Shown here: piece after piece, positions 35,518 through 54,896 of the stretch
Numbering within the stretch: position 1 is the first letter of the stretch
Layout: each line of letters begins with the position of its first letter
Assembly (NCBI GenBank): GCA_965208125.1
Contig: OZ242320.1
Span: forward strand, 512,001 to 576,000
Length of the DNA stretch: 64,000 nt
Direction: 5' to 3'
From: Candidatus Latescibacterota bacterium
GTDB lineage: Bacteria > Latescibacterota > UBA2968
Program-made: the position numbers and the translations under genes
The notes under the pieces: model-generated
The model's database searches: none
Told to the model about the DNA's origin: nothing
What the model saw: only the letters and a program-made list of their open reading frames with translations

Positions 35518-36069
35518 TCATGCATCCATCTGCGTGGATGCACTGTGAGATAGCCCATCTAACGTCTTAGAAGCTGTCTTAAAATTCGGTCTTATAATAG
35601 ACGCAATCTCTTCCGCCCGTTCCCATGATACGGTCACCTTCTGCTTCAAACCCCCATCTTTTGGCTGTAAGGCAGCGATATGCGGAGGTCCACTCCCCCA
35701 GTTGCTCGACTTTCGCCGAGGTACAACATGCATGTGAAAATGCGGCACCTCCTGCAAACTGGCCACGCCATTATTCTGATAGACCGTAATCCCATCCGGG
35801 TTGAAAGTTTTAACAAGCGCTTCCGCTGCTATACGGACCGTCTTCATAATTTCGCCAGCCTCATCATCCGTCAAATCCAATATCGTCGGCGCATGGCGGC
35901 GAGGAACAACGAGAAGCTGACCGATTTCAAACTGCCTGGGATTGAGCAACGCAAGCGTCTTTTCAGTCGCATGGATAACATGCCTTTTTTCACCGCGTCC
36001 GGCAACTATTTCACAAAATGGACAGGGATCCCACGTCGGCATCTCAAATGAGGCAACAGTATCACTCAT
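35518..36069 (-). CDS. HIT family hydrolase
   Basis: CPFC, QEVPHFHMHVVPR. Confidence 0.9.
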   Translation of the reverse strand: MSDTVASFEMPTWDPCPFCEIVAGRGEKRHVIHATEKTLALLNPRQFEIGQLLVVPRRHAPTILDLTDDEAGEIMKTVRIAAEALVKTFNPDGITVYQNNGVASLQEVPHFHMHVVPRRKSSNWGSGPPHIAALQPKDGGLKQKVTVSWERAEEIASIIRPNFKTASKTLDGLSHSASTQMDA

Positions 36070-36983
36070 CTTTCATCCTCATCTCGTCCGCTTTGATTCA
36101 GTCTCCCCCAGTGCTTTTGTCGCACCAATGGCATCCAGCCAAACCGATTGTAGAACCTTCCCGCGCCTGCTTCTTCGTCCTCCCGTGCAACGGAAAGCAC
36201 CACCCTGTCGCACTTAGCCAGCCGCAACCATTCAACAGCGTGACGGACAACCCACGAACCGACTCTCTGATTTCGCATAGATTTGATCGTCTCAACCTCC
36301 GAAAGCTCCGCCCATCCTGTCAATGCGGGCAACAGACCGCCTTCGGTGAGATCTGAAATACACTCACACTGCCCAACGTTTCGTCCATCGAGCCGAGCGA
36401 CAAATCGCGTACCGAATCTCCCCACATCGCGATGAATCGTCATACCTTTTACTGGCGGCTTACCAGGAGCAGAGATACCAGTCAGCGTGCCACCATAGAC
36501 GGATTCGTCAACATCCTCATTCGATGAATAACCAAATTGCTCCATCAGACCGATTATGTGTGGCCAAACATCCGGCACTCCTAAGCAAATTGGAACCGAT
36601 AGACCATTCCCCCAGATCTTCTCGTCCTTGACCTGCCAGGCATCCATTTGGCACCGGCACTCCTTCAGAACTGCCGCCCCAGCTTCACGCTCTCCTGGAC
36701 GGAACAAAAACCAGGCAATATCTCCAACACCCTTCCAGCGCGTGTCATCGCCGTATCGGAGGAGATGCGCCGCCGCGCAAACGCGATCGTTGACGATTCC
36801 AACAATGGACTTTCTTTCAACAACCCAGGGATCAACAATAGCCTCCTTCGGATTCCTCTTCAGGTGCTCCCAAAAGTAATCTGGCGTCAAGCTCCACCCG
36901 GGTATCACGGTACTGAGATGACTATTCACAAGATCCATGACCTGGGGCAGATGAAAACGATCAAGAGGTGCTATTTGTACCAT
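36066..36983 (-). CDS. Tandem GNAT acetyltransferase
   Basis: MRNQRVGS, RFYNRFGW. Confidence 0.75.
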   Translation of the reverse strand: MVQIAPLDRFHLPQVMDLVNSHLSTVIPGWSLTPDYFWEHLKRNPKEAIVDPWVVERKSIVGIVNDRVCAAAHLLRYGDDTRWKGVGDIAWFLFRPGEREAGAAVLKECRCQMDAWQVKDEKIWGNGLSVPICLGVPDVWPHIIGLMEQFGYSSNEDVDESVYGGTLTGISAPGKPPVKGMTIHRDVGRFGTRFVARLDGRNVGQCECISDLTEGGLLPALTGWAELSEVETIKSMRNQRVGSWVVRHAVEWLRLAKCDRVVLSVAREDEEAGAGRFYNRFGWMPLVRQKHWGRLNQSGRDEDER

Positions 36984-37001
36984 GCGTAATCCCAAAACGT
37001 T

Positions 37002-37721
37002 TTATGTATTATGAGGGCTATGGAAGTCTAACAAAGCATCTATGTACGCACCAGCGGATTTACGCAAGCGTTCAAACCGCTCTTTGGAAATAGGCCCCTG
37101 ATCTTCTTTGACACACAAATCTGATATAATGCGAATACCGACATATTTGATCTCGTTAATCGCACAAACATCCACAATAGCCGCTGACTCCCAATTCACA
37201 GCTATGGCACCACTCTCTACGGCGATTCTATCTCGCACCTCGCGGTCATAGATATCCATATCTCCGCAAATCACGGAAGATTTCCTGACCGTAGCGCCCG
37301 AATTATTTTTTGATAGACACATTGCGAACCTGTCTATCGAAGCGGAAGAGGCATCGAAGAGGCATCCTCTCCATTCATCTTGCTCGCTCTGAATCTCTGG
37401 CCTATTTGGTACATCGTGCTCAGAAACACCAGTGATTACGACAATGTCTCCAATACGTAAAAAATCTACCAGACCACCCGCAAATCCAAACTCGAAAAAT
37501 GTATCTACCTTATACTTGTCTATGATCATCTGACACATCGAAGCCGCTCGCACCTTGCCCATCCCCGACTGCATTATGACCCACTTCTCATCTCCATCGC
37601 ACCATGCAAACTGCAACCTGCCATTCCAGTCAACCGAATCGCTCGCATCATGTCCCAGAACATCGAGAAGCGCCCGCGTCTCATCTGCGTAAGCTGTCAT
37701 AACGCACAGCTTTGAACTCAT
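37002..37721 (-). CDS. MTA/SAH nucleosidase-like (PNP_UDP_1)
   Basis: SGMGKV, GFAGG, NWESAA, IRIISD. Confidence 0.85.
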   Translation of the reverse strand: MSSKLCVMTAYADETRALLDVLGHDASDSVDWNGRLQFAWCDGDEKWVIMQSGMGKVRAASMCQMIIDKYKVDTFFEFGFAGGLVDFLRIGDIVVITGVSEHDVPNRPEIQSEQDEWRGCLFDASSASIDRFAMCLSKNNSGATVRKSSVICGDMDIYDREVRDRIAVESGAIAVNWESAAIVDVCAINEIKYVGIRIISDLCVKEDQGPISKERFERLRKSAGAYIDALLDFHSPHNT

Positions 37722-37736
37722 AGATATATCTCCATT

Positions 37737-38210
37737 TCATCGCAATAATTTCTCAAAAGAAACAATAGTCATTCTCTCGTTAATCTCTCGAGTGCCTCCA
37801 GTTCTCCTATATCCCATTTTCTCATAAAAATAACAGTTGCCTTCCTCTTGCAGAATCGTCTCAAGCTCCCAGCACTCCGCATCAACAACGCCCTCAACAA
37901 GTGCCAGAGCATCCTGGCCATACCCCTTCCCCTGATGCTCTGGAATAATAAACATGGGACTAACTCTCGCTCGTCTCACCTCATCATCGTAGATAATTCT
38001 GATCGCTCCGATTTGCACACCATCGAGCATAATAAAGTAGTAAGTGGTATGGGGCTGCTTTAATCTGTCGATAACCCGTTCAACATCTTCATTGGCCGGA
38101 TTCGTATCGTAATCCCGATACTTATGGAGCAGTGGCAAAAATGACGCAACCTGAAGTCGGTGAATAGCTGCGGCATCTCTAATAGATGCTTTCTTTAAAC
38201 TGATTCGCAT
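37737..38210 (-). CDS. GNAT acetyltransferase
   Basis: PEHQGKGYG, FYEKMGY; start MRISL at 38210. Confidence 0.88.
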   Translation of the reverse strand: MRISLKKASIRDAAAIHRLQVASFLPLLHKYRDYDTNPANEDVERVIDRLKQPHTTYYFIMLDGVQIGAIRIIYDDEVRRARVSPMFIIPEHQGKGYGQDALALVEGVVDAECWELETILQEEGNCYFYEKMGYRRTGGTREINERMTIVSFEKLLR

Positions 38211-38214
38211 AAGT

Positions 38215-38766
38215 TCACCTATTTTTCCGCGCCTCCCATTCATCACGCAATAAACCACACCATACCATGTTTTTAAATTCGCCTCTTAGATAGATATCCT
38301 GGCGCAGGACACCTTCACGGACCATTCCGAGCTTCTCCATTACCCGGAGAGAACCGACATTTCTCTCATCGGCTGCAGCGCGAATGCGATTCAAATCTGG
38401 ATAGGCTGAAAACGATTCGTCGATAACAGCACCCGCGGCTTCCGTAGTCAGTCCTTTTCCCCAAAAGCGTCGGGCAATGCTATAGCCCATTTCGCCAACG
38501 CGATTATCAAAATCAAATCCAATATTAATCCCACCAATAACAGAACCAGCGTGTTCAATCGCCCAGGATATGCGTGTTTTGCGATCCTGCAACAGTTGAC
38601 CTGCCACAAATTTTTCGGCATCTGCTCTCGTGTAGGGTTGGGGAACCGGGAGAAAGCGCGCCCATTCCGGATCGGATGCGTATGACAGAACATCCTCAAC
38701 ATCCACAAGGCTAAACACCCTGAGTATCAATCGGTCTGTTTTAATAAGTTCCGACAGCATTTTCAT
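38215..38766 (-). CDS. RimJ/RimL-type GNAT
   Basis: IKTDRLILR, FWGKGLTTEA, NVGSLRVMEKLGM. Confidence 0.92.
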   Translation of the reverse strand: MKMLSELIKTDRLILRVFSLVDVEDVLSYASDPEWARFLPVPQPYTRADAEKFVAGQLLQDRKTRISWAIEHAGSVIGGINIGFDFDNRVGEMGYSIARRFWGKGLTTEAAGAVIDESFSAYPDLNRIRAAADERNVGSLRVMEKLGMVREGVLRQDIYLRGEFKNMVWCGLLRDEWEARKNR

Positions 38767-38780
38767 ATCTCTCTTTTTCT

Positions 38781-39401
38781 TCAGAGCACATCCTCATTTA
38801 ACCACCTGAGAAAACTCTCGTCATTGGTGTATTGATAGGCAAAACCACCACAACCTCTGAACAACTCAGGCTCCTTGCTGCCATCTTCGATTAAGAGACT
38901 ATTTCCATAGTGAATATCATCCCCCAGAGCTTCAAATGCAATGGGCCAGAGTGCGCGCTTGTCGATTTCTCCGTAATCGGAAGAATTGATAATCACATCA
39001 AATTTCTCGTCCAATCCATGCTCTGGAACAACGACATCTGAAAAAACATCCATATTGGCAGTTACAATCGCTGTTCGTCTCCCTTGACTTCTCTGCGTCA
39101 GTGCGAAATTCAAAACTACCTCATTAAAGTCAAGATCCTTGCATCCCAACTCCATAGTTTCCAAAACCGCAGAAATATCCATATTTGCGTGATCGGAGAC
39201 AATGGCCGCAATATCTCTAAGACTCAAGGCATTCGTCATCCACATCCTGCAGATATGCCGATTGGCGAACACATGCTCTTGAATAATATCATGCCACTCG
39301 GGACATTCTGGCGGGGATACCTTGAAATAGAGATCCGAAGACAACGTAAAACCGAAATCGAAAACAATGCACTTGAACTTGCTCAGATCACCGACCTTCA
39401 T
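38781..39401 (-). CDS. HAD-superfamily-like protein
   Basis: IVFDFGFTL, IVTAN, LLIEDG. Confidence 0.7.
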   Translation of the reverse strand: MKVGDLSKFKCIVFDFGFTLSSDLYFKVSPPECPEWHDIIQEHVFANRHICRMWMTNALSLRDIAAIVSDHANMDISAVLETMELGCKDLDFNEVVLNFALTQRSQGRRTAIVTANMDVFSDVVVPEHGLDEKFDVIINSSDYGEIDKRALWPIAFEALGDDIHYGNSLLIEDGSKEPELFRGCGGFAYQYTNDESFLRWLNEDVL

Positions 39402-39416
39402 TTCTCACAGCCTTTT

Positions 39417-39478
39417 GACTGAACTCCTGGGATAGCCTCGAAATAGTGAAGGCATCACTCTACAAATAGGGATTCAAT
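39417..39478. repeat. 62-bp direct repeat, copy 1
   Basis: GACTGAACTCCTGGGATAGCC...GGGATTCAAT; 60/62 identical to 43582..43643. Confidence 0.95.
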
Positions 39479-40300
39479 AGCTCTGACAACACCAGGTACG
39501 TACTGCTCAAAGCCGTAATTCAGAGCAAAGAAGACAACAAAAAAGAGCTTTCGCTTTGACTCATAATCCACCCTCGTCCAGAAGTTCTCCCCCAACGGCA
39601 ATTGGTAGTGTTCAACCATATCCTCGGCAAACTGCTTCCCGAACCTGCGGTAAAATATTGCGAAATCAGCAGCCGGATCGCTGAGACTCAAATCGCCGAA
39701 ATCAATCACCCCAACAATCTTCGAGTGTGCCTCATCAATCAGGACATTGTTGGTACCAAAATCCGAATGAGCAATGACGTTCTGATATGTGGCAGACGCG
39801 ACTTTTGGTATTGCTCGTTGGAAGTAGTCTTCGGCTTTCTCCCGAGTATGGCCTCGCAGGAGCGGAGACACGGCAGGCCATAATTCCCGCCAAAAATCTT
39901 TACCCCCAAATGGAGCAACCTTGATATGCTGGTGTTCGAATGCAACGGCGTGAAGGCAAGACAGAAAATTACCCAAAGCTTCTGCCGTGGATTTTCTCTC
40001 CTTCTGATCGAGATTCTGAAATATCGCCTCAGAAAACTTGACCCCCTCTATCTTTTCATAAGCTATGTAGTTGTTACCCGAGTACTGTATTTCCGGGATC
40101 TGTAAAGGTGAGTCTTTCTGGAAAAGGGGTAGAAAAGCCTGTTCAACAGCAAGCTGAGTATTTGATAGATCTCGAACAAAACGGAATATCCACTTCGCAT
40201 TTACTTCCAAAACCACATTCGTCCAGCCTTCATCCAACTGAATAATGGATTCTACAGGCTCAGTTAGCGCATTCCGAACAATTGATTCGTACGTCTGCAT
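39455..40300 (-). CDS. Aminoglycoside phosphotransferase family (APH(2'')-like)
   Basis: EGWTN, WIFRF, HSDFGTNN, VIDFGD..DPAADF. Confidence 0.88.
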   Translation of the reverse strand: MQTYESIVRNALTEPVESIIQLDEGWTNVVLEVNAKWIFRFVRDLSNTQLAVEQAFLPLFQKDSPLQIPEIQYSGNNYIAYEKIEGVKFSEAIFQNLDQKERKSTAEALGNFLSCLHAVAFEHQHIKVAPFGGKDFWRELWPAVSPLLRGHTREKAEDYFQRAIPKVASATYQNVIAHSDFGTNNVLIDEAHSKIVGVIDFGDLSLSDPAADFAIFYRRFGKQFAEDMVEHYQLPLGENFWTRVDYESKRKLFFVVFFALNYGFEQYVPGVVRAIESLFVE

Positions 40301-40509
40301 GCGATTTAGCTGAAATACGCGTAATCCCCAAGTCCTTCAGGCTTGGGATGTAACGCGCTAAAATTTCTGGGGCGGTGCTTTAGCCTGGGGCATATCGCGA
40401 ATATGCGATATGGGTGGTGAATCAACCAGACTATTCGAATAATTCTACATGACAATATGCTATGTATTTGTTAGATTTAACCTATACAACCTAACACAAG
40501 GGGTTGATC

Positions 40510-40923
40510 GTGAAGTTGAAAAGTCCTGACATGAAATATCACACCTCGCACAGTGCAGTTTTCAGTTGCCATTATCATGTTGTCTGGTGTACCAAATATC
40601 GACGCCAAGTGCTGTCTGTTGACATGCAAACCCGACTGAAAGACTTATTGCTTGAGAAGCAGTGCGAATATGGCTATGAAGTGCAAGGTTGTGAAATCTT
40701 GTCTGATCATGTTCATTTGCTTCTTTCTGTTACGCCGTCAAAGCCAGTGAGTAGTGTTGTAGGCAGGCTCAAAAGCTATACGGCTCATATTCTGCGGTCT
40801 GAATATCCAGAACTTAAAAGCAGATTGCCGTCTTTGTGGACGCGGAGTAAGTTTGTAGCAACCGCTGGCGAAGTGACGCTTGGAGTTCTGAAACGCTACG
40901 TTGAAAATCAAAAGGGCGTATAG
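40510..40923 (+). CDS. tnpA: Y1 HUH transposase TnpA
   Basis: YHVVWCTKYRR, DHVHLL, LWTRS, RYVENQ. Confidence 0.95.
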   Translation: MKLKSPDMKYHTSHSAVFSCHYHVVWCTKYRRQVLSVDMQTRLKDLLLEKQCEYGYEVQGCEILSDHVHLLLSVTPSKPVSSVVGRLKSYTAHILRSEYPELKSRLPSLWTRSKFVATAGEVTLGVLKRYVENQKGV

Positions 40924-42029
40924 TGGACTATATAACTTACAAATTCAAGCTGTATTCGGCGTGTGACCGAAATCGGTATCTGCACTATGAGATAGACGCC
41001 TTTGCTGGCGTGTATAACCACTTCATTGCTTTGATTAAGCGATACTATCAGCGATACAGCAAGTATCCGAACAAGTATGCACTGAAGAGGCATCTGACAA
41101 AACTAAAAAAAACTAAGCGATTTGGTCATTGGAGTGCGCTACCGTCTCAGGCATTGCAAGATGTGGTATTTCGCATAGATTTTGGCTACCAGAAGTTCTT
41201 TGCCAGAGACAACAAGCGACCGCCCACTTTCAGATCACGCTTCCGGTATCAGTCCTATACCCTGACGCAAGCAGGATACAAATTCCTTGAGCGTAACAAA
41301 GTGCGTATCGGCAAGCGTATATTTCGCTATCACAAAAGCAGAAACTTCGATGTAGAAAGTATCAAGACGGTCACAATCAAGCGTGACCGTGTAGGCGACT
41401 TGTGGCTATGTGTTGTTGCAAAGGCTGAAGGTATCAAGTCATTCATTGTCAAGAACGGTAAAACCGCAGGCTTTGACTTCGGCTTGAAAACCTACCTGAC
41501 GGCCTCAGACGCCACACGAACACAATCGCCTTTGTTCTTTTCTCGCAACGCCAGACAGGCCAAAAAAGCCAACCGCAATCTGTCACGTAAGCAGAAGAGT
41601 AGCAACAACCGTCATAGAGCAAGAGTGAACCTTGCCAGAGTGCATCGGCGCGTAGCGAATCAGCGCAGGGACTATCACTGGCAACTTGCCCATCAACTGT
41701 GCAAAGACTATGATGTAATGTGCTTTGAAACGCTGAACATCAAAGCCATGCAACAGTTGTGGGGCAAAAAGATTAACGATCTGGGATTCTCGAACTTCTT
41801 GGTCACCCTCAAATATGTCGCACAAAAGACAGGCAAAACAGTTCGGCAAATTGACCAGTGGCTACCCACGTCTAAGACTTGCTCCGCATGTGGCACTGTC
41901 AAAGAAAATCTTGAATTGCGAGAAAGAACATTTCATTGTTGCGAATGTGGTCTTGAAATAGATAGAGATCTCAACGCAGCGATAAACATTCACAGGTGGG
42001 GGCGTCCGCCTATGGCGGAGGCAGCGTAA
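40923..42029 (+). CDS. tnpB: RNA-guided endonuclease TnpB
   Basis: RuvC GFDFG / FETL / DRDLNAAINI; CxxC..CxxC zinc finger. Confidence 0.95.
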   Translation: MDYITYKFKLYSACDRNRYLHYEIDAFAGVYNHFIALIKRYYQRYSKYPNKYALKRHLTKLKKTKRFGHWSALPSQALQDVVFRIDFGYQKFFARDNKRPPTFRSRFRYQSYTLTQAGYKFLERNKVRIGKRIFRYHKSRNFDVESIKTVTIKRDRVGDLWLCVVAKAEGIKSFIVKNGKTAGFDFGLKTYLTASDATRTQSPLFFSRNARQAKKANRNLSRKQKSSNNRHRARVNLARVHRRVANQRRDYHWQLAHQLCKDYDVMCFETLNIKAMQQLWGKKINDLGFSNFLVTLKYVAQKTGKTVRQIDQWLPTSKTCSACGTVKENLELRERTFHCCECGLEIDRDLNAAINIHRWGRPPMAEAA

Positions 42030-42142
42030 GACCAGACTTGCATAGCTGGCTACTGCCGTTGATACCACAATCCCTGCTGAAGCAAAGAGAATCCCAATGC
42101 TTCAGCTTTGGGAGTATGTCAATCTCTCCACTTATCGCGCGG
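41950..42142 (+). ncRNA. Predicted TnpB omegaRNA (reRNA) with flank-derived guide; 5' end approximate
   Basis: Established architecture: overlaps tnpB 3' end, scaffold ends at RE TCAA (42122), guide TCTCTCCACTTATCGCGCGG. Confidence 0.6.
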
Positions 42143-42853
42143 ATGGGCCCGGAAGTTGAATTCTCCTCTATTGAGCGTCTCATCAAATTGAACAAGAGCC
42201 TTGATTACCTTTTTGCGGGCATCTGCCATAAACGGATTCAGCAATTGCGTCTCTCTGTATGTGGAAGGCGAGTTCGTTTTCAGGTGTTCAATCAATTGCA
42301 GGAGAAACCTGCCTGCTCCAGATGGCAACTTCTCGCGCTCTTCCTCCGGTAGATAGAGTTCAAGAGCCATCCCAATAAAATGCGCCATACCAGGACCTGT
42401 TCTGCGATCTTCATCTTCTGCAGTCCTGGGAATCAGCTTACAACCCATACGCTTCAGGCATGCTGATATCTCGGGATCCGCTTTTCCAAATAGGGATATA
42501 TTGCCTGGACCAAGATGCGATAGTCCAAACCTCTCTCGATTCAATATTGATAGTTCCTTATCTGCAGCAAGTCGTGCTGTGCAACAATCAATCACAACGC
42601 AATCAGATTTGGCATGCTCATTGATCTTCGGAACCCATTTGCCAAGTGCCCAAACGGGAATAGCCAGAAAAATAACATCTGCCCCGGAAAGACTTTCAGT
42701 ATTGTTGCTTGACTGCCGCACTCCAACATCGACCAGTTCAGAGCTTATATCGCGACTCGAAATAACCTCGACCTGAAATCGATCCGCGAATGCATTTACT
42801 GCCTGCTTTCCCATTCTGCCGAAACCGATTATGCAAAGTCTCTTACTTGCCAT
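42119..42853 (-). CDS. Prephenate dehydrogenase-like NAD(P)-binding protein
   Basis: IIGFGRMG, IFLAIP, VIDCCT, ETQLLNPF. Confidence 0.65.
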   Translation of the reverse strand: MASKRLCIIGFGRMGKQAVNAFADRFQVEVISSRDISSELVDVGVRQSSNNTESLSGADVIFLAIPVWALGKWVPKINEHAKSDCVVIDCCTARLAADKELSILNRERFGLSHLGPGNISLFGKADPEISACLKRMGCKLIPRTAEDEDRRTGPGMAHFIGMALELYLPEEEREKLPSGAGRFLLQLIEHLKTNSPSTYRETQLLNPFMADARKKVIKALVQFDETLNRGEFNFRAHPRDKWRD

Positions 42854-42887: not shown

Positions 42888-43580
42888 TCATATCGCCTGC
42901 TCAATCCAGTTGGGAAGATGCAAAACCAGATCATTCATTATCCTCTCTGTATTTTCTACATAAATCTGCACATTGCCTTCATAAGCCTCGCCGCCTTCAG
43001 CCCCCACCAAATCTGTAACCCCGCGTAAAATGAGACATCTGACCTTATTTCGGTTTGCTACCCAGGCAATTGCGCCCGACTCCCAATCCCCTGCTACTGC
43101 ACCATATTTGGACTTCAAAACCGAAATATCTTCTGCCACCAGATCGCGGTCTGCTGATACCAGAACAGTTCTCAACACGGGATGGGGATATGGCTCACTT
43201 AACCACGAAAGATCAATCTCAGTTGTATAATCTCTGATCGCTTCCTCGGCATCCAACATCTGCTCGACAATATCATAGACAACCGTACACTCAACCAGCA
43301 CAATCGTATCCTTCTCAACCCCGCTTTCAAATCCACCGCAAGTCCCCAAATTCACCACGAGATTTGGAGACCATCGATCAATAGCATATTGTGCTGATGC
43401 AGCCGCCGAAATCTTACCCCATCCTCCGTGAAAAAATAGAACTGACTGTTGCCCACCTTTAATGTCAAGGTGCGTCTCAAACCATTGTCCATAAGGAGAT
43501 ACTTGTAGGTCAGCATCGGGAAAAATTCTCCCGATAGAATCCCATTCAATATTGGCTGAAATGATCACAACAACAAACAT
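42888..43580 (-). CDS. MTA/SAH nucleosidase-like (PNP_UDP_1)
   Basis: GGWGKISAA, NLGTCGG, DWESGA, LRGVTD. Confidence 0.85.
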   Translation of the reverse strand: MFVVVIISANIEWDSIGRIFPDADLQVSPYGQWFETHLDIKGGQQSVLFFHGGWGKISAAASAQYAIDRWSPNLVVNLGTCGGFESGVEKDTIVLVECTVVYDIVEQMLDAEEAIRDYTTEIDLSWLSEPYPHPVLRTVLVSADRDLVAEDISVLKSKYGAVAGDWESGAIAWVANRNKVRCLILRGVTDLVGAEGGEAYEGNVQIYVENTERIMNDLVLHLPNWIEQAI

Positions 43581-43581
43581 A

Positions 43582-43643
43582 GACTAAACTCTTGGGATAG
43601 CCTCGAAATAGTGAAGGCATCACTCTACAAATAGGGATTCAAT
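43582..43643. repeat. 62-bp direct repeat, copy 2 (orphan APH 3' end plus RBS)
   Basis: Encodes IESLFVE* with no upstream APH body; ends 1 nt before the nucleosidase ATG. Confidence 0.95.
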
Positions 43644-43801
43644 TTTCAGTCTCCAACTTGATTCCATACATTGGCTGCATACATTAAGCCTATTTCGGGA
43701 CTACGAAGATTTACTAATATTGTGACAACTTTAGCGGCAAAATGGTTTCTATATTGAAAAATATATCTACGATACAGGAACCAAAAATGGCGTGGGCTGG
43801 T

Positions 43802-45319: not shown

Positions 45320-45334
45320 ATTCAACCTCCTAAT

Positions 45335-47633: not shown

Positions 47634-47700
47634 ATTTATCTCTCCTGGGGCTTACTGCTGTTGAGCTTCTGTTAAAAAACGTCTGCTGTTCAAATTGCGA

Positions 47701-48435
47701 CTATGCCACAGCATCTCTGAATATCCCCGCTGTGGTCGATATAACCTCATCCCAAAGCCTGCGCCCCAACTCGGCACTCGCTCTGGTCGCATCACCAATG
47801 ACACCAGTATCTGAGTATTTTGAGAAATCGAGATGCGGATCATTCCAATCCACTTCTCTTGAACTGGACGAAGGGATGTTCTCAAGTCTAACCGTAGCCG
47901 GGCGTCTATACATGGCAATCGAAGTCGTGAAACTATCGGCATGACCACCTGGAACGCTGGGATCAGATACCCGGCACCAAATGTCGTGATATGGCAAGGA
48001 TGGAAGACAAGCCTTGCATCTTAGATGGAACTTCGCGTTGAATCTATTCACCGCCTCCTGAAGTCGATGCTCACCGCAGCCGCGCCAGACAACAACAGTC
48101 CCAAAGCCCTGTTCTGCCAGCGATTCAAGGACGAAATAGACATACGCTTCATGAACAACGTGCGGGATGTTGACATATCCCGAGCCAAAGCCCCGATGTT
48201 CGGGCGTGGGGCCAAACGGTATGGCTGGCAAAACCAGAGCACGCACATCGTGATAACGTGCCGCCTGCTGTGCAGCCTCCAGAGCAACGGCTTCCGCAAA
48301 CCATGTGTCGAAATCTACTGGCAAATGTGGACCCTGTTGCTCTGTGCATCCTGTGGGTACAATCGCCAGGCACCCAGCTTCTATAAGGTCCTTGATTTCT
48401 AAGTACGTATAATCAGTGAATTTATGAGAGTTCAT
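47701..48435 (-). CDS. Creatininase family amidohydrolase
   Basis: GCTEQQGPHLPVDFD, GGHAD, TGVIGD. Confidence 0.88.
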   Translation of the reverse strand: MNSHKFTDYTYLEIKDLIEAGCLAIVPTGCTEQQGPHLPVDFDTWFAEAVALEAAQQAARYHDVRALVLPAIPFGPTPEHRGFGSGYVNIPHVVHEAYVYFVLESLAEQGFGTVVVWRGCGEHRLQEAVNRFNAKFHLRCKACLPSLPYHDIWCRVSDPSVPGGHADSFTTSIAMYRRPATVRLENIPSSSSREVDWNDPHLDFSKYSDTGVIGDATRASAELGRRLWDEVISTTAGIFRDAVA

Positions 48436-48466
48436 TTTTTAGAGTTTTGATAGTCCTGAATGCTCC

Positions 48467-48541
48467 CCGTAGCGAGTTGTGCGGAGGCGCAAGCGCGACA
48501 CAACGAAAACCGCTGTGTTACACAATGTGCAACACAGCGTA
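48467..48541. repeat. Paired hairpins, attC-like remnant
   Basis: 29-bp palindrome 48511..48539 plus an adjacent GTTGTG..CACAAC stem. Confidence 0.5.
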
Positions 48542-48599
48542 CTGGCCATGGACAGCGTAATTCCATCTCATTGGATATTCAGTGGAAATAGACTGCCGA

Positions 48600-48860
48600 T
48601 CAAGCGGCTGTGGTCTGTCTAATTTCCCAACCGGGAAAAACGAGAACAGCCGGATGGCACTGCAACGCCCGAGCGAGTACCTTGGCGCGCTCAACTCCAA
48701 GCTGGATGCGGTTATTTTCGATGGCTGAAATAGTTGATTGGGGAATGCCTGTGCGTCTGGCAAGCTCGTTTTGACTAAACTCCTGAAGTTCGCGGATAAT
48801 ACGGACGGACTCACCTACGGATACCTCAATCTGCTTCCTGGCACGACGGTAATTTTTCAT
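48600..48860 (-). CDS. higA: Xre-HTH antitoxin (HigA-like)
   Basis: SQNELARRTGIPQSTISAIEN. Confidence 0.85.
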   Translation of the reverse strand: MKNYRRARKQIEVSVGESVRIIRELQEFSQNELARRTGIPQSTISAIENNRIQLGVERAKVLARALQCHPAVLVFPGWEIRQTTAA

Positions 48861-48861
48861 T

Positions 48862-49143
48862 TTACTGTCTCCGATAATCATGAGCGGTTAGACTTACAAC
48901 CTGCACGAGAACTCTGCTGGCTTCGGTTTTGTATATGACGCGGTAGTGGAGACCAAGCCGAGATGACCTGTGTCCTTGCCATTTTCCTCTCAGTGCTTCG
49001 TCATGAAATCCTTTGATAAGCCTCAAACCTTGAGGACCTGATATCATAACGATATCTTTCCATTTTTCGTAACGCTTGAGAATTTCCTGGGGCATAGATT
49101 TTATCTGCTTGCCCACCCTTCGATGCTCGAGAATAGTCCACAT
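48862..49143 (-). CDS. higB: RelE/HigB family mRNA interferase toxin
   Basis: FHDEALRGKWQGHRSSRL...YRVIY; upstream of the antitoxin. Confidence 0.85.
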   Translation of the reverse strand: MWTILEHRRVGKQIKSMPQEILKRYEKWKDIVMISGPQGLRLIKGFHDEALRGKWQGHRSSRLGLHYRVIYKTEASRVLVQVVSLTAHDYRRQ

Positions 49144-49178
49144 ACCATATAATATATAGATTATTTATGGTATGTCAA
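49140..49178 (-). promoter_or_regulatory. Leaderless higBA promoter with 10-bp inverted-repeat operator
   Basis: TTGACA-16bp-TATATT-7nt-ATG; ACATACCATA-N16-TATGGTATGT. Confidence 0.75.
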
Positions 49179-49238
49179 TTCGCTCCTACCAATCGTTGTA
49201 GATCGCATTAACCCACTATTAGGTGATACAAATATTTT

Positions 49239-49682
49239 TTACATCTTTCCTTCGTTGATCAAATCGATCGCAGAAGGTCCTGTTTGCACCTTGTAATATG
49301 TCCTTGCCCTGTCCGCGAAGTAATCCTTAATGCGCTCGACCTGCTTGGGGGACGTGTTGCTCGGGATACGATCTAAATGAAAATACTCAATCTGATCCGC
49401 CTCATCGGTAAGCTGGATTGTACCCCCTGTAACCTGGCAGAAAAATGACAACACGACCTCATTTTTATCTGGTTTACTATACACCCCACTGAGATGGACG
49501 GGCACAGCTTTCAAACCCGTTTCTTCTTCTATCTCTCGCACCAGAGCAGCCCACGGACTCTCGCCTGCCTCAACGCCCCCACCGGGCAAATTCCACAAAT
49601 CGAAGTCGCGTCGGTGGCACAGCAAGACGCGGTCTTTATCATCGGTAATAATTCCAAAAACGCCGATTGTAAACACAATCAA
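49239..49682 (-). CDS. NUDIX hydrolase
   Basis: LPGGGVEAGES..ALVREIEEETG. Confidence 0.92.
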   Translation of the reverse strand: MIVFTIGVFGIITDDKDRVLLCHRRDFDLWNLPGGGVEAGESPWAALVREIEEETGLKAVPVHLSGVYSKPDKNEVVLSFFCQVTGGTIQLTDEADQIEYFHLDRIPSNTSPKQVERIKDYFADRARTYYKVQTGPSAIDLINEGKM

Positions 49683-50224
49683 ATTTCCTTTTTGATATAT
49701 CGAACATATCCCAACTCGGCTTCGGAGATACCCAATCCATCCAGTTCACCTATTGGGACAAATGTCGCTTCCTCTTCATAGTCATCGGCGCACATTAAAC
49801 CTGGCACATATTTGGAAGCGCAGGCAGTGTAAACGATTTGAAAAAAGTGAGGATATGGGAACTGGAATCCAGGCGACTTCGGCTTGAGATGTTTCAGATG
49901 GATGAACCCCAGACGTGAGATAGATTCAATCGTCCAGCCTGTCTCCTCTGCAACTTCGCGGCGAAGTGTTTGTTCGAAAGTCTCGCCCTCTTCGCGACGA
50001 CCACCCGGCAAAATGTGGTTGCCCTTGCGATTCCTGAGTCCCAGAACAGAATCATGCTGAAAAACGAGACATCGAACAGAAGTTACAAACTCCTCTGGCG
50101 GCTGTTCATCGGAACAAAAATAACGCACGCGCAAAGGCATCGTCCCATCTGCCCACAGAGCTTCTGTCTCGTGAAAAGGAGTCTTACCCTTCAAAAATAT
50201 CTGTAAGTCTTCGTTATGATTCAA
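49679..50224 (-). CDS. NUDIX hydrolase
   Basis: LPGGRREEGETF..LRREVAEETG; likely TTG start overlapping the dcd stop. Confidence 0.85.
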   Translation of the reverse strand: MNHNEDLQIFLKGKTPFHETEALWADGTMPLRVRYFCSDEQPPEEFVTSVRCLVFQHDSVLGLRNRKGNHILPGGRREEGETFEQTLRREVAEETGWTIESISRLGFIHLKHLKPKSPGFQFPYPHFFQIVYTACASKYVPGLMCADDYEEEATFVPIGELDGLGISEAELGYVRYIKKEI

Positions 50225-50753
50225 TTCTATCCATACCTTTAAAATCGAGATACAAACGACTGGATTGAATACCCGTGTTATTTTGATACTTTCCACTTTT
50301 GTAGGTCTCGAAATCGCCATCCAGCGTATGGTAGTAAATCTGGCAGATTTCCACATTTGGATAGATCCGGATGGGTCGAATACAGAACATTTCCAAAGTC
50401 CAGTAGCCCGCGAAGCCCACATCGCCAAAACCTGCGGTTATGTGTACAAACAGCCCCAATCTGCCCACAGATGACCGCCCCTCAAGCATGGGAACATAAT
50501 TATTCGTTCTGGTAAATTCAACTGTCCTGCCAAGATAGAGCGTTTGGGGTTGCATCTCGTACCCATCATCCGGAATCTGAATAGATCGCGTGCGATTTTT
50601 CTTCTTCATATCGAGAACGCCATCCTCATATATCATGAGTTCATTGGCGAGTGAAAGATTATAGCTATTGGGGTTGAGCCTGGCGGGATCAAACGGTTGA
50701 ATAATAATGTCTTTTCCCATTCGCTCGTGAATCATTTTTCCCGATAAAATCAT
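50214..50753 (-). CDS. dcd: dCTP deaminase (trimeric dUTPase fold)
   Basis: MILSG, NPNSYNL, GRSSVGRLG, TAGFGDVGF.G.WTLE. Confidence 0.92.
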   Translation of the reverse strand: MILSGKMIHERMGKDIIIQPFDPARLNPNSYNLSLANELMIYEDGVLDMKKKNRTRSIQIPDDGYEMQPQTLYLGRTVEFTRTNNYVPMLEGRSSVGRLGLFVHITAGFGDVGFAGYWTLEMFCIRPIRIYPNVEICQIYYHTLDGDFETYKSGKYQNNTGIQSSRLYLDFKGMDRIES

Positions 50754-50767
50754 AACGCGCTCCCCGA

Positions 50768-51250
50768 CTATTCTACTTCAGGTAAATCTCTATACATGAT
50801 ATGCATATAATCTGTAAACCCATGTTTTCTCCAGAATGAATATCCAACGGTATTCATAGAAGCCACTCGCAGTTCAACTCTGTCTATTCTCAGAGATCGA
50901 AACCAATTCAACATCTCTTTTAGCATCAACTCTCCAATTCCTTTTCTCCTGTGTTCAGAAGAAACAGCCAAATCTTGAATAGTGCCACAGATTTGCTTGA
51001 TGAATACGGGAGGATATTTGTCAATCTTTGCTGTTCCGTAGCCCAATACCTTTGTATTCTCAACCGCTATAACCACGAGAGCATCCTCTGCCGAGATCAG
51101 TCTTGCCAGATTCTCACCCATGCTTTCTTCTGCACCCTCAGACAGAGTATATCTGGAATCAAACGGGACATGAAAATCCATGAGTTCTTTCCAGATCTCC
51201 AGTATAGCGGGTATATCAGATTTGTGAGCAGTAACAACTTCCATTTTCAT
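50768..51250 (-). CDS. GNAT acetyltransferase
   Basis: HRRKGIG, FWRKHGF; SD GGAGAGG. Confidence 0.9.
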   Translation of the reverse strand: MKMEVVTAHKSDIPAILEIWKELMDFHVPFDSRYTLSEGAEESMGENLARLISAEDALVVIAVENTKVLGYGTAKIDKYPPVFIKQICGTIQDLAVSSEHRRKGIGELMLKEMLNWFRSLRIDRVELRVASMNTVGYSFWRKHGFTDYMHIMYRDLPEVE

Positions 51251-52076
51251 CCTCTCCAATATACGATGCGTCATTGACCACCTGACTATATACTGCTGTT
51301 TTTGAAACCTCCGAAATTACGAAATCGAGAAAATCTATAGCCTCCTGTCTCGCGTCCAATTCAATACCGTATTTCCACGCCAGAGCTCTGCCTACCAAAT
51401 CACGCCACCTTTCTCCATAATCCTCCCGCACCCATGACGCAGCCATCTTCTTCGAGCCAACAACGGAGCAAATCACAGTATGCAGTATTCGACACAGATT
51501 CAGAATGAAATACGCTTCATGGTGGCTATCCCTAAACCACTCCGGAGTGAATTTTTTCGGTGCCCATTCCTGAAACAAATCTCGAACGCAGGCATTTCGC
51601 ACATCCTCAACATCAACCGGAGACAATAACTTCTTAAAACTCGGACCAAATAGCGCGATGGAATGGCTATAAAGAAAATATTTGTTGATTATCCATTCAT
51701 TCCCATAAGGTGCCTCTTCATAAAGAGTACAATCACCACCCCAGTACCACGGTCGAGGCTCCGTTGGAGGCATAACACATGGGAGCATATCAACAGGCGT
51801 ATAAGAACACTCTAACCGCCGCGCCCATTTCTCGAATTTTTCTTCTATCTCTCTGTGTAAACGTCCAATTGAATCGAGTTCACTTCGAGAAACAGGTCGA
51901 TGCACAATCACTGTAATATCAATATCACTGCTATGGTAGTTAAACGCCCCATGGGACAACGAGCCGGTCAGATATATCCCGAGTACATTTTCTCCGAGAG
52001 CAGGAAAAACGCTTTTAACGAAAAAATCTATAATCTCGTTCACATCGGGATATTTCGTAAGATTGCTTGCAGTCAT
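51216..52076 (-). CDS. AadA/ANT-like nucleotidyltransferase with DUF4111
   Basis: GIYLTGS..SSDIDI, ILNLCRI, SKKMAA.W. Confidence 0.85.
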   Translation of the reverse strand: MTASNLTKYPDVNEIIDFFVKSVFPALGENVLGIYLTGSLSHGAFNYHSSDIDITVIVHRPVSRSELDSIGRLHREIEEKFEKWARRLECSYTPVDMLPCVMPPTEPRPWYWGGDCTLYEEAPYGNEWIINKYFLYSHSIALFGPSFKKLLSPVDVEDVRNACVRDLFQEWAPKKFTPEWFRDSHHEAYFILNLCRILHTVICSVVGSKKMAASWVREDYGERWRDLVGRALAWKYGIELDARQEAIDFLDFVISEVSKTAVYSQVVNDASYIGEDENGSCYCSQI

Positions 52077-52137
52077 CGTCCTATCGTACGGAGAAATTAC
52101 TTGAATCATTCGGAACAGTTGATTGTTTCCATCTATA

Positions 52138-52683
52138 CTATAACTTGCGCTTCATGAACACCGCAACTTCACCATCGACATCACTATTGGTATAATAGGA
52201 CAGATCGACACCATCGACTTCAAAACCTACGCTGTGATAGAAATCAATGGCTGGCACATTGGTATTTTGAGTCTCACAAACCAAAATTCTCAGCCCTTCA
52301 GCTTTGGCGGCTTCCGCTATCTTCTCCATCAATTGCCTGCCAACACCCTTTCTCCTGTATGACTCGTCAACTCCAAATTCCCTGATCCATAGGCTCCTAT
52401 TCCACTCTATTTCTTCCGAAATTGCGATACCCACAAGTTGTTCAGCATCGTAGGCTCCCAGCGACAGACCACAATTGACAAGTTTGCTGTAGATCCTGAA
52501 ATCCTCTTTTGAGAACGACCAGTGTTTCACATAGGGTTCATCCAATTTTTGACGCTTAAAAATAAAACAGAACTCATCAGCGGTCTCAGTCTTAGACACC
52601 TGGTACCTATCATTTGAAACATACCCATCCATTATATATAGATCCTCGCGCCGTAGCTGCTCCAATTTTCTGATTTCGACCAT
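52138..52683 (-). CDS. GNAT, streptothricin acetyltransferase-like
   Basis: EWNRSL, YRRKGVG, ETQNTNVPAIDFY..GF..GVD. Confidence 0.85.
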   Translation of the reverse strand: MVEIRKLEQLRREDLYIMDGYVSNDRYQVSKTETADEFCFIFKRQKLDEPYVKHWSFSKEDFRIYSKLVNCGLSLGAYDAEQLVGIAISEEIEWNRSLWIREFGVDESYRRKGVGRQLMEKIAEAAKAEGLRILVCETQNTNVPAIDFYHSVGFEVDGVDLSYYTNSDVDGEVAVFMKRKL

Positions 52684-52717
52684 GTATCTCTTTCACCGGA
52701 TATTCATAAGTTTATTT

Positions 52718-53536
52718 TTATCTATTCTCTTCCAGCCAACCGACCGCGAAATCCACAACATCTCGTTGTGGCATGATCTGGCAACGCGCGAGACCAACCT
52801 TGCCGTGACGCACCACTTTCCCTGCATCTGACCGCAAAAAATCCTCACCGATGCGATCAAAATCCGAACTATCCAGCTCAACATCTTCAAAGGTAGCCCA
52901 TGTTCTTGAACCCGACTCAGAGATCGGTGCGCCCTCTTGCACAATGCGCCTGGTAGAAAAACTCGCCCGATATTCCGCAAGGTGCATAGACGTATTATTT
53001 CCGTGACCCACACCGAGAAGAAGGACAAAACCGTGCAAATCGTAGATTCTCGCAAGCGGTGAATGCTCGCCCATGCCAAAAGACAGTGAATGATCATCCA
53101 CGACATACGATGCTTGAGGTCCACAGGCACAAAATGAGTCCAGCGGATGTGAACTACGCAGAACCCCTCTCTGCTTGCGGAACGTCTCCGCAATAATACC
53201 CATAGCACGAGTTGGCGTAAGTGCCGGATCGTAAGCCGGCATAGTCTCGCGTATCACCGACCACCACGACCTGGGAACAGGGGGACTCTCCCACTTGCTC
53301 GGCTCACTCAGACCAGATGAGTGCGCGGGCATCACAAGCGTTCCAGTAGATCCCAGAACTTTCTGAAGCGCAATAACAACCGCCACGGCTCCTCCACACA
53401 CCCATCCCATCGCACTCAAAGACGAATGCACCAACACGACCATCCCCGGTCTAACGCCAAGCGCGCGAAGATCTGTCTGCAACGATTCAATCGTAGCGGG
53501 CATTTCTGTTTTTTCAACAACCTTGTCTTCACTCAT
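52718..53536 (-). CDS. AAC(3)/YokD family N-acetyltransferase
   Basis: VLVHSSLS, GTLVMP, RSSHP, NTSMHLAE. Confidence 0.92.
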   Translation of the reverse strand: MSEDKVVEKTEMPATIESLQTDLRALGVRPGMVVLVHSSLSAMGWVCGGAVAVVIALQKVLGSTGTLVMPAHSSGLSEPSKWESPPVPRSWWSVIRETMPAYDPALTPTRAMGIIAETFRKQRGVLRSSHPLDSFCACGPQASYVVDDHSLSFGMGEHSPLARIYDLHGFVLLLGVGHGNNTSMHLAEYRASFSTRRIVQEGAPISESGSRTWATFEDVELDSSDFDRIGEDFLRSDAGKVVRHGKVGLARCQIMPQRDVVDFAVGWLEENR

Positions 53537-53557
53537 TATTTTTTCCCACTGCACCAC

Positions 53558-53902
53558 CTATTTCGCTGCAATCACGACCATCTCCACAAGTGTATCTCCC
53601 TCCAATTTGACCTCCACACAGGCGCGCTGGGGCCAATTGTCGGCACCAATCCAAGCGTCCCAAACCGCATTGAGGACGGGTTTCTTTGACATATCTGTGA
53701 TATAGATCGTGACGGAAAGAAGACAAGACTTATCGGTTCCAGCCTCGGCGAGATTCGCATCCAACTGTTCGAGCGCCTGTTGAGTCTGACCCTTGAGATC
53801 TGTGGACACATCCGGTGCGGTGACAACTGTATAGACGATGCCATTGTGTTCAACGGACTTACTGCGACCAAATGCCTTTCCCGGATAGCGGTTGATGGCC
53901 AT
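53558..53902 (-). CDS. RidA family (YoaB-like)
   Basis: QTQQAL, NAVWDAW, PQRACV, VEM. Confidence 0.9.
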   Translation of the reverse strand: MAINRYPGKAFGRSKSVEHNGIVYTVVTAPDVSTDLKGQTQQALEQLDANLAEAGTDKSCLLSVTIYITDMSKKPVLNAVWDAWIGADNWPQRACVEVKLEGDTLVEMVVIAAK

Positions 53903-54155
53903 AAATGCTCCAATGGATAGCGGTTTTACAACATAAATTTTACTGATCTTGTGACAATTCTATCCACAAGATAGTTTCTGTGATGCACACGATAAGTTTT
54001 TTGGGAAGGACCAGGATGACTGGCGATAACGGTCTGCGGATTGCCGAACCTGACCGAAAGATAAGAGAAAGGTTGAGTGGGCTGAGTAAGGAAAGGATTG
54101 GGAATGGGTGTATTACATCTCCTTCTGGTGTGTAAGACCAGTCTCTTTCTCGTTT

Positions 54156-54896
54156 TTATTTTCGGCAAATGATAAAGTGTTCCATCCACAAATGCCAGAT
54201 ATAATCTACAGATCGAAAACCCGCCTCTTTTAGCCATTCAACCTGAAAAGAAAAACGAGATATCCGATCTCTCTCAGGACTGTCTTCATCTACCTGCTCA
54301 ATAATCTCACGCACCCGATTCGCCTCTTCAATATCAATCCCAGCTTCTTCGAACCTCTCTCCTCGGCGGAAATTGAGCCGCCTTCGCCCCAACTTATAAA
54401 CCTCGTCGTCAAAGCGCGTGGACATGGCATCGATCAAAAAGAACCAACCACCTGTCTCAAGCACATCGTAAATCTGCCTGAATATGCGGGCCTTATTCTC
54501 ATCTGTAAGATGATGGATAGTCGAAAACGATGCAACAAACTGAAAAGATCCCAAACCTTCTGGCAGCCCCTCATTGAGATCTTTCTGAAGAAACGCTACG
54601 CGATCTGAATGCGTGCCCATCTTCCGAGCCGCAAATCTCATCATCTCATCTGAAAAATCGATAGCCACACACGTTGCTTTTGGATATTTCATCAAAACAC
54701 AATTGAGAAATATACCCGTTCCGCATCCCAAATCGAGCATCCGAAATTCAGTCTGGTCATCAAACGGAATAAAATCCAGAGCCAGACTGTGATAAAATTC
54801 AAACATCTCAATCCGAATCGGCTGCAGGCGATCATAATCCTCAGCACGCGTTGAGAATTGAATACTTTGAGATTTCTGGATCTTTTGATTATCCAT
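54156..54896 (-). CDS. Class I SAM-dependent methyltransferase
   Basis: LDLGCGTG, IDFS, IHHL, WLKEAGF. Confidence 0.9.
   Translation of the reverse strand: MDNQKIQKSQSIQFSTRAEDYDRLQPIRIEMFEFYHSLALDFIPFDDQTEFRMLDLGCGTGIFLNCVLMKYPKATCVAIDFSDEMMRFAARKMGTHSDRVAFLQKDLNEGLPEGLGSFQFVASFSTIHHLTDENKARIFRQIYDVLETGGWFFLIDAMSTRFDDEVYKLGRRRLNFRRGERFEEAGIDIEEANRVREIIEQVDEDSPERDRISRFSFQVEWLKEAGFRSVDYIWHLWMEHFIICRK

Follow-up and report, generated by a model that had tools for sequence, protein, structure and literature searches.

A compact array of small co-directional genes beside hflX in sponge-associated Latescibacterota, possibly the fossil of an integron-like cassette array

The subject of this analysis is a run of small genes, here called array 1, at positions 35518-54896 of a 64,000-nt window (G000:C1:512001-576000) of the 5.75-Mb, single-contig genome of a Candidatus Latescibacterota bacterium; the window is the whole stretch analyzed, coordinates are its own unless stated otherwise, and handles such as G000, C1 and L112 denote genomes, contigs and loci. 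Array 1 is bounded by hflX and a fatty-acid-desaturase-like gene and consists of 24 minus-strand genes and one doubtful open reading frame (ORF), together with an inserted IS200/IS605 insertion sequence (IS) and a higBA-like pair, and everything in it except the IS lies on the minus strand and reads towards hflX. Public sequencing runs that hold stretches of the window include runs labelled as sponge metagenome. We argue below, at a probability of about 0.55, that array 1 is an attC-less, "domesticated" fossil, i.e., the distal part of an integron-like cassette array from which recombination sites and recombinase have been lost.

In Table 1, we have listed the features of the locus and of two sister arrays found elsewhere in the same genome. 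A Pfam family was found for 28 of the 33 ORFs scanned, and curated NCBIfam cut-offs were reached by three of 27 (HflX, dCTP deaminase and RelE/StbE). Five GNATs of 168-309 aa are included. The array proteins are mutually unrelated, in that an all-against-all BLASTP of 29 of them returned two weak pairs only, at 22% and 28% identity. The GC content of the array is 47.4% versus 51.2% for the genome (2nd percentile of 20-kb windows), 20 of its 26 junctions measure 60 nt or less, and among runs of 20 consecutive ORFs it belongs to the genome's three most extreme runs of short co-directional genes. An earlier description made from the letters of the sequence (the sequence-only reading) had pictured just such an AT-rich, mostly abutting run of unrelated one-strand genes beside hflX, with an embedded higBA and with duplicated junctions, orphan gene ends and read-through tails. 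That picture is borne out, the embedded pair being higBA in kind, with a RelE/StbE-family toxin upstream of an XRE-HTH antitoxin.

Judged from families only (acetyl-, phospho- and nucleotidyl-transferases, NUDIX, HIT, nucleosidase-like proteins and dCTP deaminase), array 1 may act as a reserve of enzymes that modify small molecules and nucleotides, its genes being read towards hflX as several transcription units. The named resistance models all score below their NCBIfam cut-offs (AAC(3) 200.7 versus 270, ANT(9) 47 versus 340, APH(2'') 74 versus 600, STAT 53 versus 420), and the margins are such that "resistance-like" denotes a family likeness here and makes no claim of function. An anti-phage defence island was considered and rejected: in PADLOC, six of 25 proteins match single generic-domain models (HIT/ThsC, HTH, two NUDIX, RidA-like and methyltransferase, with none for dCTP deaminase), and no complete system is present. 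Two metatranscriptome runs yielded contigs over the genes for HIT, unk206, APH340, DoxX, creatininase, the toxin-antitoxin pair, dCTP deaminase and RidA; because such contigs show no strand, ends or level and may reflect DNA carry-over, we make no claim of expression or of operon structure from them. Promoter and terminator scans were at chance level overall (25 generic promoters versus 26.0 expected), and in an Rfam scan of 34000-58000, with the limit set at E 0.1, a sub-threshold Leu-leader match was the only return.

Table 1. Features of array 1 and its borders (window positions) and of the sister arrays (genome or locus positions)
Feature	Position	Strand	Basis or remark
hflX GTPase	34183-35478	-	Pfam GTP-bdg_N/M, MMR_HSR1; TIGR03156 448.9 bits, above cut-off; in 31/31 genomes searched; 3' end of the array's transcription direction
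HIT	35518-36069	-	Pfam
GNAT	36066-36995	-	Pfam
PNP_UDP_1 nucleosidase-like	37002-37721	-	Pfam
GNAT	37737-38258	-	Pfam
Acetyltransf_3 GNAT	38215-38766	-	Pfam
206-aa protein without family (unk206)	38781-39401	-	Pfam scan
Repeat copy A	39417-39478	-	last 24 nt of the APH gene plus 38 nt of downstream spacer
APH-family phosphotransferase, 281 aa (APH281)	39455-40300	-	Pfam APH; NCBIfam resistance models all below cut-off
IS200/IS605	40310-42122	+	tnpA 40504-40923, tnpB end 42029; Y1_Tnp E 3e-36, OrfB_IS605, Cas12f1-like_TNB
NADP/F420-type oxidoreductase (F420ox)	42119-42853	-	Pfam; only fragments in G002, G008
Second PNP_UDP_1 gene	42888-43580	-	Pfam; only fragments in G002, G008
Repeat copy B (orphan APH 3' end)	43582-43643	-	repeat search; start of scar region 43582-43777
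Asp/Glu-racemase stubs, two	43649-43708, 43712-43777	-	comparison with relatives
Second APH-family gene	43802-44824	-	Pfam
DoxX	44885-45325	-	Pfam
ArsR-type HTH stub, C-terminal 35 aa	45413-45517	-	tblastn 66% identity; gene intact at same position in G006
S9 peptidase	45537-47633	-	Pfam
Creatininase-family amidohydrolase	47701-48435	-	Pfam
Conserved non-coding segment downstream of antitoxin	48464-48599	-	alignment with relatives
13-bp terminator-like hairpin below antitoxin	48511-48539	-	hairpin scan
XRE-HTH antitoxin	48600-48881	-	HTH_3 E 8e-15 (Pfam); downstream of toxin
RelE-like toxin	48862-49143	-	TIGR02385 30.2 bits vs cut-off 27.9
Promoter-like site of toxin-antitoxin unit	49151-49178	-	11/12 positions match
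NUDIX	49239-49682	-	Pfam
NUDIX	49679-about 50200	-	Pfam
dCTP deaminase	50214-50753	-	Pfam; TIGR02274 110.2 bits, above cut-off
GNAT	50768-51274	-	Pfam
ANT/AadA-like nucleotidyltransferase	51216-52109	-	Pfam; ANT model below cut-off
GNAT	52138-52683	-	Pfam
AAC(3)-family acetyltransferase	52718-53557	-	Pfam; AAC(3) model below cut-off
RidA	53558-53902	-	Pfam
Doubtful ORF	53926-54237	-	dN/dS 0.60
Methyltransferase	54156-54896	-	Pfam
Fatty-acid-desaturase-family gene	54899-56077	-	variable member at upstream edge; only in G000, G015, locus L039
Array 2	G000:C1:~4,087,000-4,111,700 (L110, L111)		33 co-directional small ORFs
Array 3	~4,328,000-4,368,000		GNATs, APH, methyltransferases, S9 peptidase, IS5; ends at tyrosine recombinase
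Array-3 tyrosine recombinase	L112:18012-18842		best NCBIfam model = integron integrase, 196.9 bits vs cut-off 265

The history of array 1 can be read from 11 genus genomes (G000 and 10 relatives) that have hflX and a FAD oxidoreductase gene on one contig, for which the intervals were compared and the ORFs clustered. The hflX-to-FAD-oxidoreductase interval ranges from 4.2 to 20.5 kb; the common genes stand in one order across the 10 relatives, and each species is without a different subset of them. The same collinearity with gene-wise gaps is seen in 14 loci from named records, some of which belong to the same genomes, and the exceptions to the order are a few copy-and-decay moves. Even sister species can lie at the extremes, G009 having the shortest array (about 8 genes) and G015 nearly the longest (about 27 genes). 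When the BLASTN block ends against the 10 relatives were grouped into 67 breakpoint clusters, 38 lay within 30 nt of an ORF end where 8.5 would be expected (2000 random draws never gave more than 19), and 13 lay more than 100 nt inside genes. The gene-sized modules are real. The sequence-only reading had proposed synteny across relatives as a test of its view that genes are shuffled in and out, and the answer is divided: content does vary, with breakpoints at gene boundaries, but order is conserved. Indels with clean ends at gene boundaries are also found, far more rarely, in the ordinary flanks, e.g., an Acetyltransf_9 (GNAT) gene at 17130-18254 that is missing with clean ends in G006 and G014, or the extra 1.6-8 kb found near 23715 in all five relatives searched. 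At the upstream edge, a breakpoint pair at 54899/56067 recurs in most comparisons, with the cluster at 54899 shared by 7 of 10 genomes.

What the losses and moves left behind is informative. In G005 and G009, the final 25-50 nt of GNAT309 can still be found upstream of HIT, G013 retains a stub of GNAT173, and in G002 and G008 both F420ox and PNP230 have suffered internal deletions. On a tree built from two flanking genes, array genes such as GNAT309 and PNP239 are scattered among lineages, and such scattered presence, taken with the stubs, indicates repeated independent loss. Four genes or units change place between species, namely APH281, the racemase gene, APH340 (in G006) and the toxin-antitoxin unit, which occupies two alternative places among relatives. 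APH281 lies between unk206 and F420ox in G000 and G015 but between PNP230 and APH340 in G002; an internally deleted copy persists at the old site, and 38 nt of the spacer that formerly lay downstream have moved with the new copy. Since relocated genes leave internally deleted old copies, the moves represent copying and decay, not excision. For 24 array genes, dN/dS is 0.05-0.27 and dS 0.10-0.45, which may be set beside hflX (dN/dS 0.10, dS 0.24) and the oxidoreductase gene (0.14 and 0.23). The six genes of 35518-39401, whose presence differs among relatives, have dN/dS of 0.09-0.25, and the genes of 49239-54896 have 0.05-0.25, except for the doubtful ORF at 53926-54237. Block identity between species is 75-95% in array 1, mostly 87-95%, and 87-94% in the flanks; with blocks as diverged as the flanks, array 1 gives no sign of recent exchange. 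The array genes are under purifying selection and each is individually dispensable, and it is settled that array 1 is old, vertically inherited and eroding by ordinary deletion, not shuffling. Breakpoints pile up at gene ends because selection removes the events that harm a packed neighbor or its ribosome-binding region, and deletion together with such selection is enough to place them there.

The scars within G000 itself tell a similar story. A repeat search found a 62-nt direct repeat (39417-39478 / 43582-43643, 97% identical) and no further repeat families in array 1; in G002, the copy-A sequence directly links the PNP230 remnant to the APH281 gene. The racemase gene that survives here as two stubs is intact in G005 and near-complete (coverage at least 0.82) in G002, G008, G009, G013, G014, G015, G017 and G004, and the breakpoint 43711/43712 recurs in 8 of 10 comparisons. 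A full, 80%-identical ArsR-HTH copy stands in array 2 of G000. Stubs lie within three of G000's long gaps, and the NUDIX ORF 49679-50428 reads 215 nt into the dCTP deaminase gene. The IS carries a Y1 (HUH) TnpA and a TnpB, as IS200/IS605 elements do, with hairpin-forming ends visible in the sequence, and tnpA and tnpB are the only mobile genes at the locus. The same insertion is present in G015, and a metagenome contig of run X4 shows the insertion-free joint 40309>42123, from which the IS is taken to be a late insertion. It was rejected as the carrier of the relocated APH gene, for the IS-free joint already has that gene at its new place. The toxin-antitoxin unit shows the HigBA arrangement, with the toxin first, a 20-nt overlap, and promoter-like and terminator-like sites of its own.

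No machinery for gene capture was detected at the locus. Among the 62 window ORFs scanned there is no recombinase, integrase or reverse transcriptase, and the recombinase of array 3 has no match in the window; genome-wide, the integron integrase model TIGR02249 has no match above its cut-off, and the best integrase candidate lies 3.8 Mb from array 1. The array thus shows neither the adjacent intI with its additional domain nor the attC after each cassette that mark a complete integron, and, no site having been found, it also differs from a CALIN, i.e., a group of at least two attC sites with no integrase close by (Cury et al. 2016, PMC4889954). The claim that the locus has no regular attC and no intI stands. 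The claim that there is no integrase holds for the window and fails for the genome, where an IntI-like recombinase lies beside array 3.

At least two more arrays with the same kind of cargo exist in G000. Array 2 encodes GNATs, NUDIX, AAC(3), MazF, SIR2, GrpB, a glyoxalase and a paralogue of the FAD oxidoreductase; its content differs between members of the genus one gene at a time, four of the larger genes occur scattered in deep species, and a single degenerate attC-like site lies at its end. Array 3 ends at a tyrosine recombinase whose best PDB relative is IntI4 (2a3v); the true XerC and XerD are encoded elsewhere in G000. In the platform at G000:C1:4364211-4368842 (L112:14211-18842), the recombinase stands with three co-directional cassettes, each ending in an attC-like hairpin of 90-104 nt. 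A full-length recombinase of 376 aa is encoded in G005 (L116:12100-13230), with further attC-like sites, and fragments of the gene are scattered in the arrays of other species. Between species, blocks of array 3 often share 95-100% identity and stand in a partly changed order, which suggests recent exchange, unlike the condition of array 1. A non-coding segment of ~159 nt (L112:10665-10823) occurs in two to three copies inside arrays of G042, G006 and G041, with another in G000 (4347889-4348019). The coordinates L112:1541-1678 and L112:15186-16128 mark an IS5-family element, with three identical copies in G000 and at least twelve in G015, and a segment of ~139 nt with the IS end sequence, which resembles a miniature inverted-repeat transposable element and is also scattered in several genomes.

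Sites of the attC family are imperfect hairpins in which the outer R''/R' boxes are conserved, the L''/L' boxes vary yet stay paired, and the spacer is asymmetric. The attC-like sites were defined from five hairpins of 90-134 nt that follow cassettes in G000 and G005 and have outer TAAC/GTTA boxes and inner stems, with spacers of 4 versus 7 nt in four of the five. A covariance model found six more gene-strand sites in arrays 2 and 3 of G000 and the G005 locus, five of them in spacers. Two sites fall outside the training set, one found by a second model in G005 and one by a whole-genome nhmmer profile at 4,139,650-4,139,727 (E 0.005). All eight nhmmer hits at E <0.01 are on the minus strand between 4.087 and 4.368 Mb; the model hits in G000 number one in array 2 and seven in array 3. 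In the alignment of 11 sites, the outer UAAC/GUUA boxes are kept in 9-11 sites, eight of nine inner stem pairs show compensatory change, and 84.8% of cells are paired as against 67% in shuffles (0/500 reach it) and 29-39% with the partner slid; because the alignment was fitted to the model, these covariation figures lean towards the hairpin structure. If the sites are true attC, arrays 2 and 3 would qualify as CALINs. The hit at 4139650-4139727 edges a run of short co-directional ORFs (4139747-4156555), possibly a fourth array.

Several observations tie array 1 to this system. The gene x15, which encodes a 249-aa protein with a UVR motif, lies within about 3 kb of hflX in three of four deep genus members and four of five sister-family genomes; in G000 its orthologue is the immediate neighbor of the recombinase, on the same strand as in the outgroups. 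Arrays 1 and 3 are therefore placed on either side of an old hflX|x15 junction. In G006, array 1 contains a 32-codon remnant that matches the recombinase C-terminus (14 of 32 positions identical, pairwise E 1e-7; tblastn E 0.003 across 25 loci), and its tail is conserved in G002, G004 and G005, so that array 1 of four relatives holds a decayed recombinase 3' end. G000 retains 55 nt (48464-48518) homologous to the first 18 codons of the remnant, cut at 48464 by the creatininase-gene junction. A Gp49 + HTH toxin-antitoxin pair of the pan-array also lies beside hflX in the deep species G001 (G018 has an antitoxin homologue only). For the PIN and ArsR-HTH genes of array 1, paralogues at 63-80% occur in arrays 2 and 3, and an attC-like site follows one of these.

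The distribution of array 1 points to arrival on a single branch. Of 21 genus genomes, 17 have a GNAT183 orthologue, with identities of 89-100%; elsewhere in the family identity is 41% or less. The four deep genus members have no array gene beside hflX or the oxidoreductase gene and no array DNA in their genomes apart from tnpB; an array query found dCTP deaminase in none of the four, and they hold only GNAT paralogues at 34-35%. From this absence it follows that about 35-40 pan-array genes arrived on one branch, in one place and in one orientation. HIT relatives at 76-79% identity occur, in unrelated gene contexts, in records titled Poribacteria. These relatives (L041-L043) suggest either that genes have passed between phyla among sponge symbionts or that bins carry the wrong label. 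No similar small-gene array was found at the Poribacteria and Dehalococcoidia HIT loci (ORF maps of five loci; only HIT matched in 21).

Three neighboring or related features may be recorded in passing. An RND efflux operon at 24703-31680, 2.5 kb from hflX, encodes an HlyD-type adaptor, a 1346-aa AcrB-family pump and an outer-membrane factor. A 368-aa protein with an HNH_4 endonuclease domain is encoded at 3318-4424, in the window's most AT-rich kilobase (41.7% GC), where the adjoining ORFs have no family. A second hflX paralogue (G000:C1:2634046-2635263, 49% identity) is found also in 11 of 30 other genomes searched, all of them crown-clade members of the genus.

The interpretation that we favor, at the odds given above, is that array 1 was built in the ancestor of one sponge-associated Latescibacterota clade at the old hflX|x15 junction, that it would later have become separated from the recombinase end, and that its recombination sites may have been lost through the same compaction that trims every spacer in it. 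It has been inherited vertically since, and its present variation consists of deletions, a few copy-and-decay relocations that leave stubs, an IS insertion and toxin-antitoxin units. We further propose, tentatively and at somewhat less than even odds, that these sponge-associated bacteria carry an undescribed class of integron-like system, with an IntI-nearest recombinase that lacks the IntI-specific domain and is co-directional with its cassettes, and with an attC family of its own, for which arrays 3, 2 and 1 would represent stages of a life cycle.

Several observations weigh against the favored interpretation. The attC core consensus is RYYYAAC...GTTRRRY, and that pattern has no match in the 19.4 kb of array 1. 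Two attC-like covariance models (R1 and R2), run with filters off, gave nothing better than E 2.7 on the window and nothing at a gene-strand junction; the whole-genome nhmmer scan with an attC-like profile gave no hits in array 1; and 25 array-1 loci of relatives (several genomes being represented twice) gave no nhmmer hits and a sole, marginal covariance-model hit (L039:1980-2073, 17.4 bits). The attC-like sites themselves are defined by a covariance model built in this analysis from the five hairpins. The recombinase scores below the integron integrase cut-off and is without the IntI-specific domain: just 25 of its residues stand opposite IntI4 residues 173-239, and nothing in it matches model positions 174-235. 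It is also co-directional with the cassettes, its gene is present in only two of 21 genus genomes, and the G000 copy is 5'-truncated, without the first ~142 residues of the G005 copy. The remnant of its gene is short, mid-array and incomplete in G000, where the diagnostic tail is missing. Outgroup synteny is the one source from which the former contiguity of arrays 1 and 3 is drawn, and the outgroup neighbors of the FAD oxidoreductase gene have their places in G000 at 3.44-3.45 Mb rather than beyond the far end of array 3, so that a single inversion splitting the two arrays does not fit.

One competitor is an ordinary accessory-gene hotspot in which promoter-less foreign genes were gathered upstream of hflX by illegitimate recombination and are now eroding, with no tie to integrons. 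Genes would have survived there only if co-directional and intergenic, and the likeness of cargo would stem from similar selection in the sponge. An AT-rich, clade-specific array is what any island would show, the locus in G000 has no attC-like site or recombinase, the flanks have clean whole-gene indels too (17130-18254 and near 23715), and the HIT relatives in Poribacteria-titled records sit in unrelated contexts. We regard the hotspot as less likely than the fossil, if by some way the most credible of the competitors, because it leaves unexplained the recombinase 3' remnant in array 1 of four relatives, the presence of a recombinase and an attC-bearing array, on the same strand, across the old hflX|x15 junction, and the near-perfect co-orientation of about 24 unrelated small genes.

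Much less credible is the mechanism that the sequence-only reading had preferred, an undescribed and active one that recombines at the junction of stop codon, ribosome-binding site and start codon and moves single genes in and out. The 4.5-fold enrichment of breakpoints within 30 nt of ORF ends, the one duplicated 62-nt junction, the four genes or units at differing places, and alternative joints at gene ends among metagenome contigs of one sample could all be cited for it. Yet a motif search on all 26 junctions, which that reading had called for, found none in common (the commonest 8-mer occurs in 3/26), and there is no repeat family beyond the single pair; relocated genes leave decayed old copies, 13 of 67 breakpoint clusters are deep inside genes, collinearity is kept, array-1 blocks are as diverged as the flanks with no sign of recent exchange, and the alternative joints stem from co-occurring relatives at 90-95% likeness. 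The notion of ongoing gain, shuffling and loss at the junctions is thus not supported. Its fallback, a heavily eroded CALIN, fares better on circumstantial grounds (the attC-like sites of the sister arrays, the recombinase beside x15, the remnant in four relatives) but no site is found at the locus. At the other extreme, a stable housekeeping operon that merely resembles cassette cargo would account for the single order of the common genes and the low dN/dS. It is refuted by the variation in content among relatives, from 4.2 to 20.5 kb and from about 8 genes in G009 to about 27 in G015, and we give it almost no credence: all array genes are absent from the four deep genus members, and an internal terminator, a promoter, the IS and the scars break up the array.

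Compared with known systems, array 1 as the favored fossil resembles sedentary chromosomal integron arrays and CALINs in being a long co-directional run of small, unrelated, mostly promoter-less genes, in its cargo (GNAT, NUDIX, HIT, aminoglycoside-modifying-like enzymes, RidA and DoxX, with embedded toxin-antitoxin units), and in being AT-richer than its host genome and variable among close relatives; the sister arrays add attC-like hairpins in which the outer boxes are conserved and the inner stems covary. Unlike those systems, array 1 has no detectable attC, its 0-60-nt spacers being too short for one, no integrase within 3.8 Mb, a fixed gene order, and a divergence equal to that of the core genome. 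The recombinase match to IntI (VchIntIA/IntI4, 2a3v) spans the N-terminal and catalytic parts including the C-terminal tail. Unlike IntI, the recombinase is without about 40 residues at the additional domain, which, according to a title cited in PMC4792948, is needed for activity; it also falls below the family cut-off, runs in the same direction as the cassettes and, in G005, has an extra N-terminal stretch of about 100 aa. Chromosomal integrons are reported to have been gained and lost within the genus Treponema (PMC3607928), and, as there, the platform is present in some species of the clade and lost in others; cassettes here would outlive the platform and become fixed. In the literature library searched, no paper reports integrons from genomes of Latescibacterota. 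Flexible genomic islands or hotspots occupy one site between conserved genes, with content that differs among close relatives; array 1 departs from these in its strict co-orientation, its tiny spacers and the lack of mobile-element genes except for one late IS.

Integrons are familiar as devices that capture genes, but the fate of cassettes after the loss of an integrase is mostly a matter of conjecture; Cury et al. (PMC4889954) speculate that CALINs whose attC sites are very degenerate may mark a stage in the stabilization of captured genes. This genus offers a natural series in which the GNAT183 marker places array 1 in 17 of 21 genomes, the recombinase is full-length in one genome and truncated in another, and fragments of its gene persist in several more, and which allows site loss, the rate of single-gene shedding and the kept cargo to be measured. 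The case also makes clear that integron-like cargo without attC need not mean a new mechanism, since purifying selection on packed neighbors is enough to place indel ends at gene boundaries. If the proposed class of integron-like system is real, the series would run from an attC-bearing, re-ordered array 3 through an array 2 with degenerate sites to a site-less, compacted and vertically fixed array 1, and array 1 would then document the conversion of captured cassettes into ordinary chromosomal genes.

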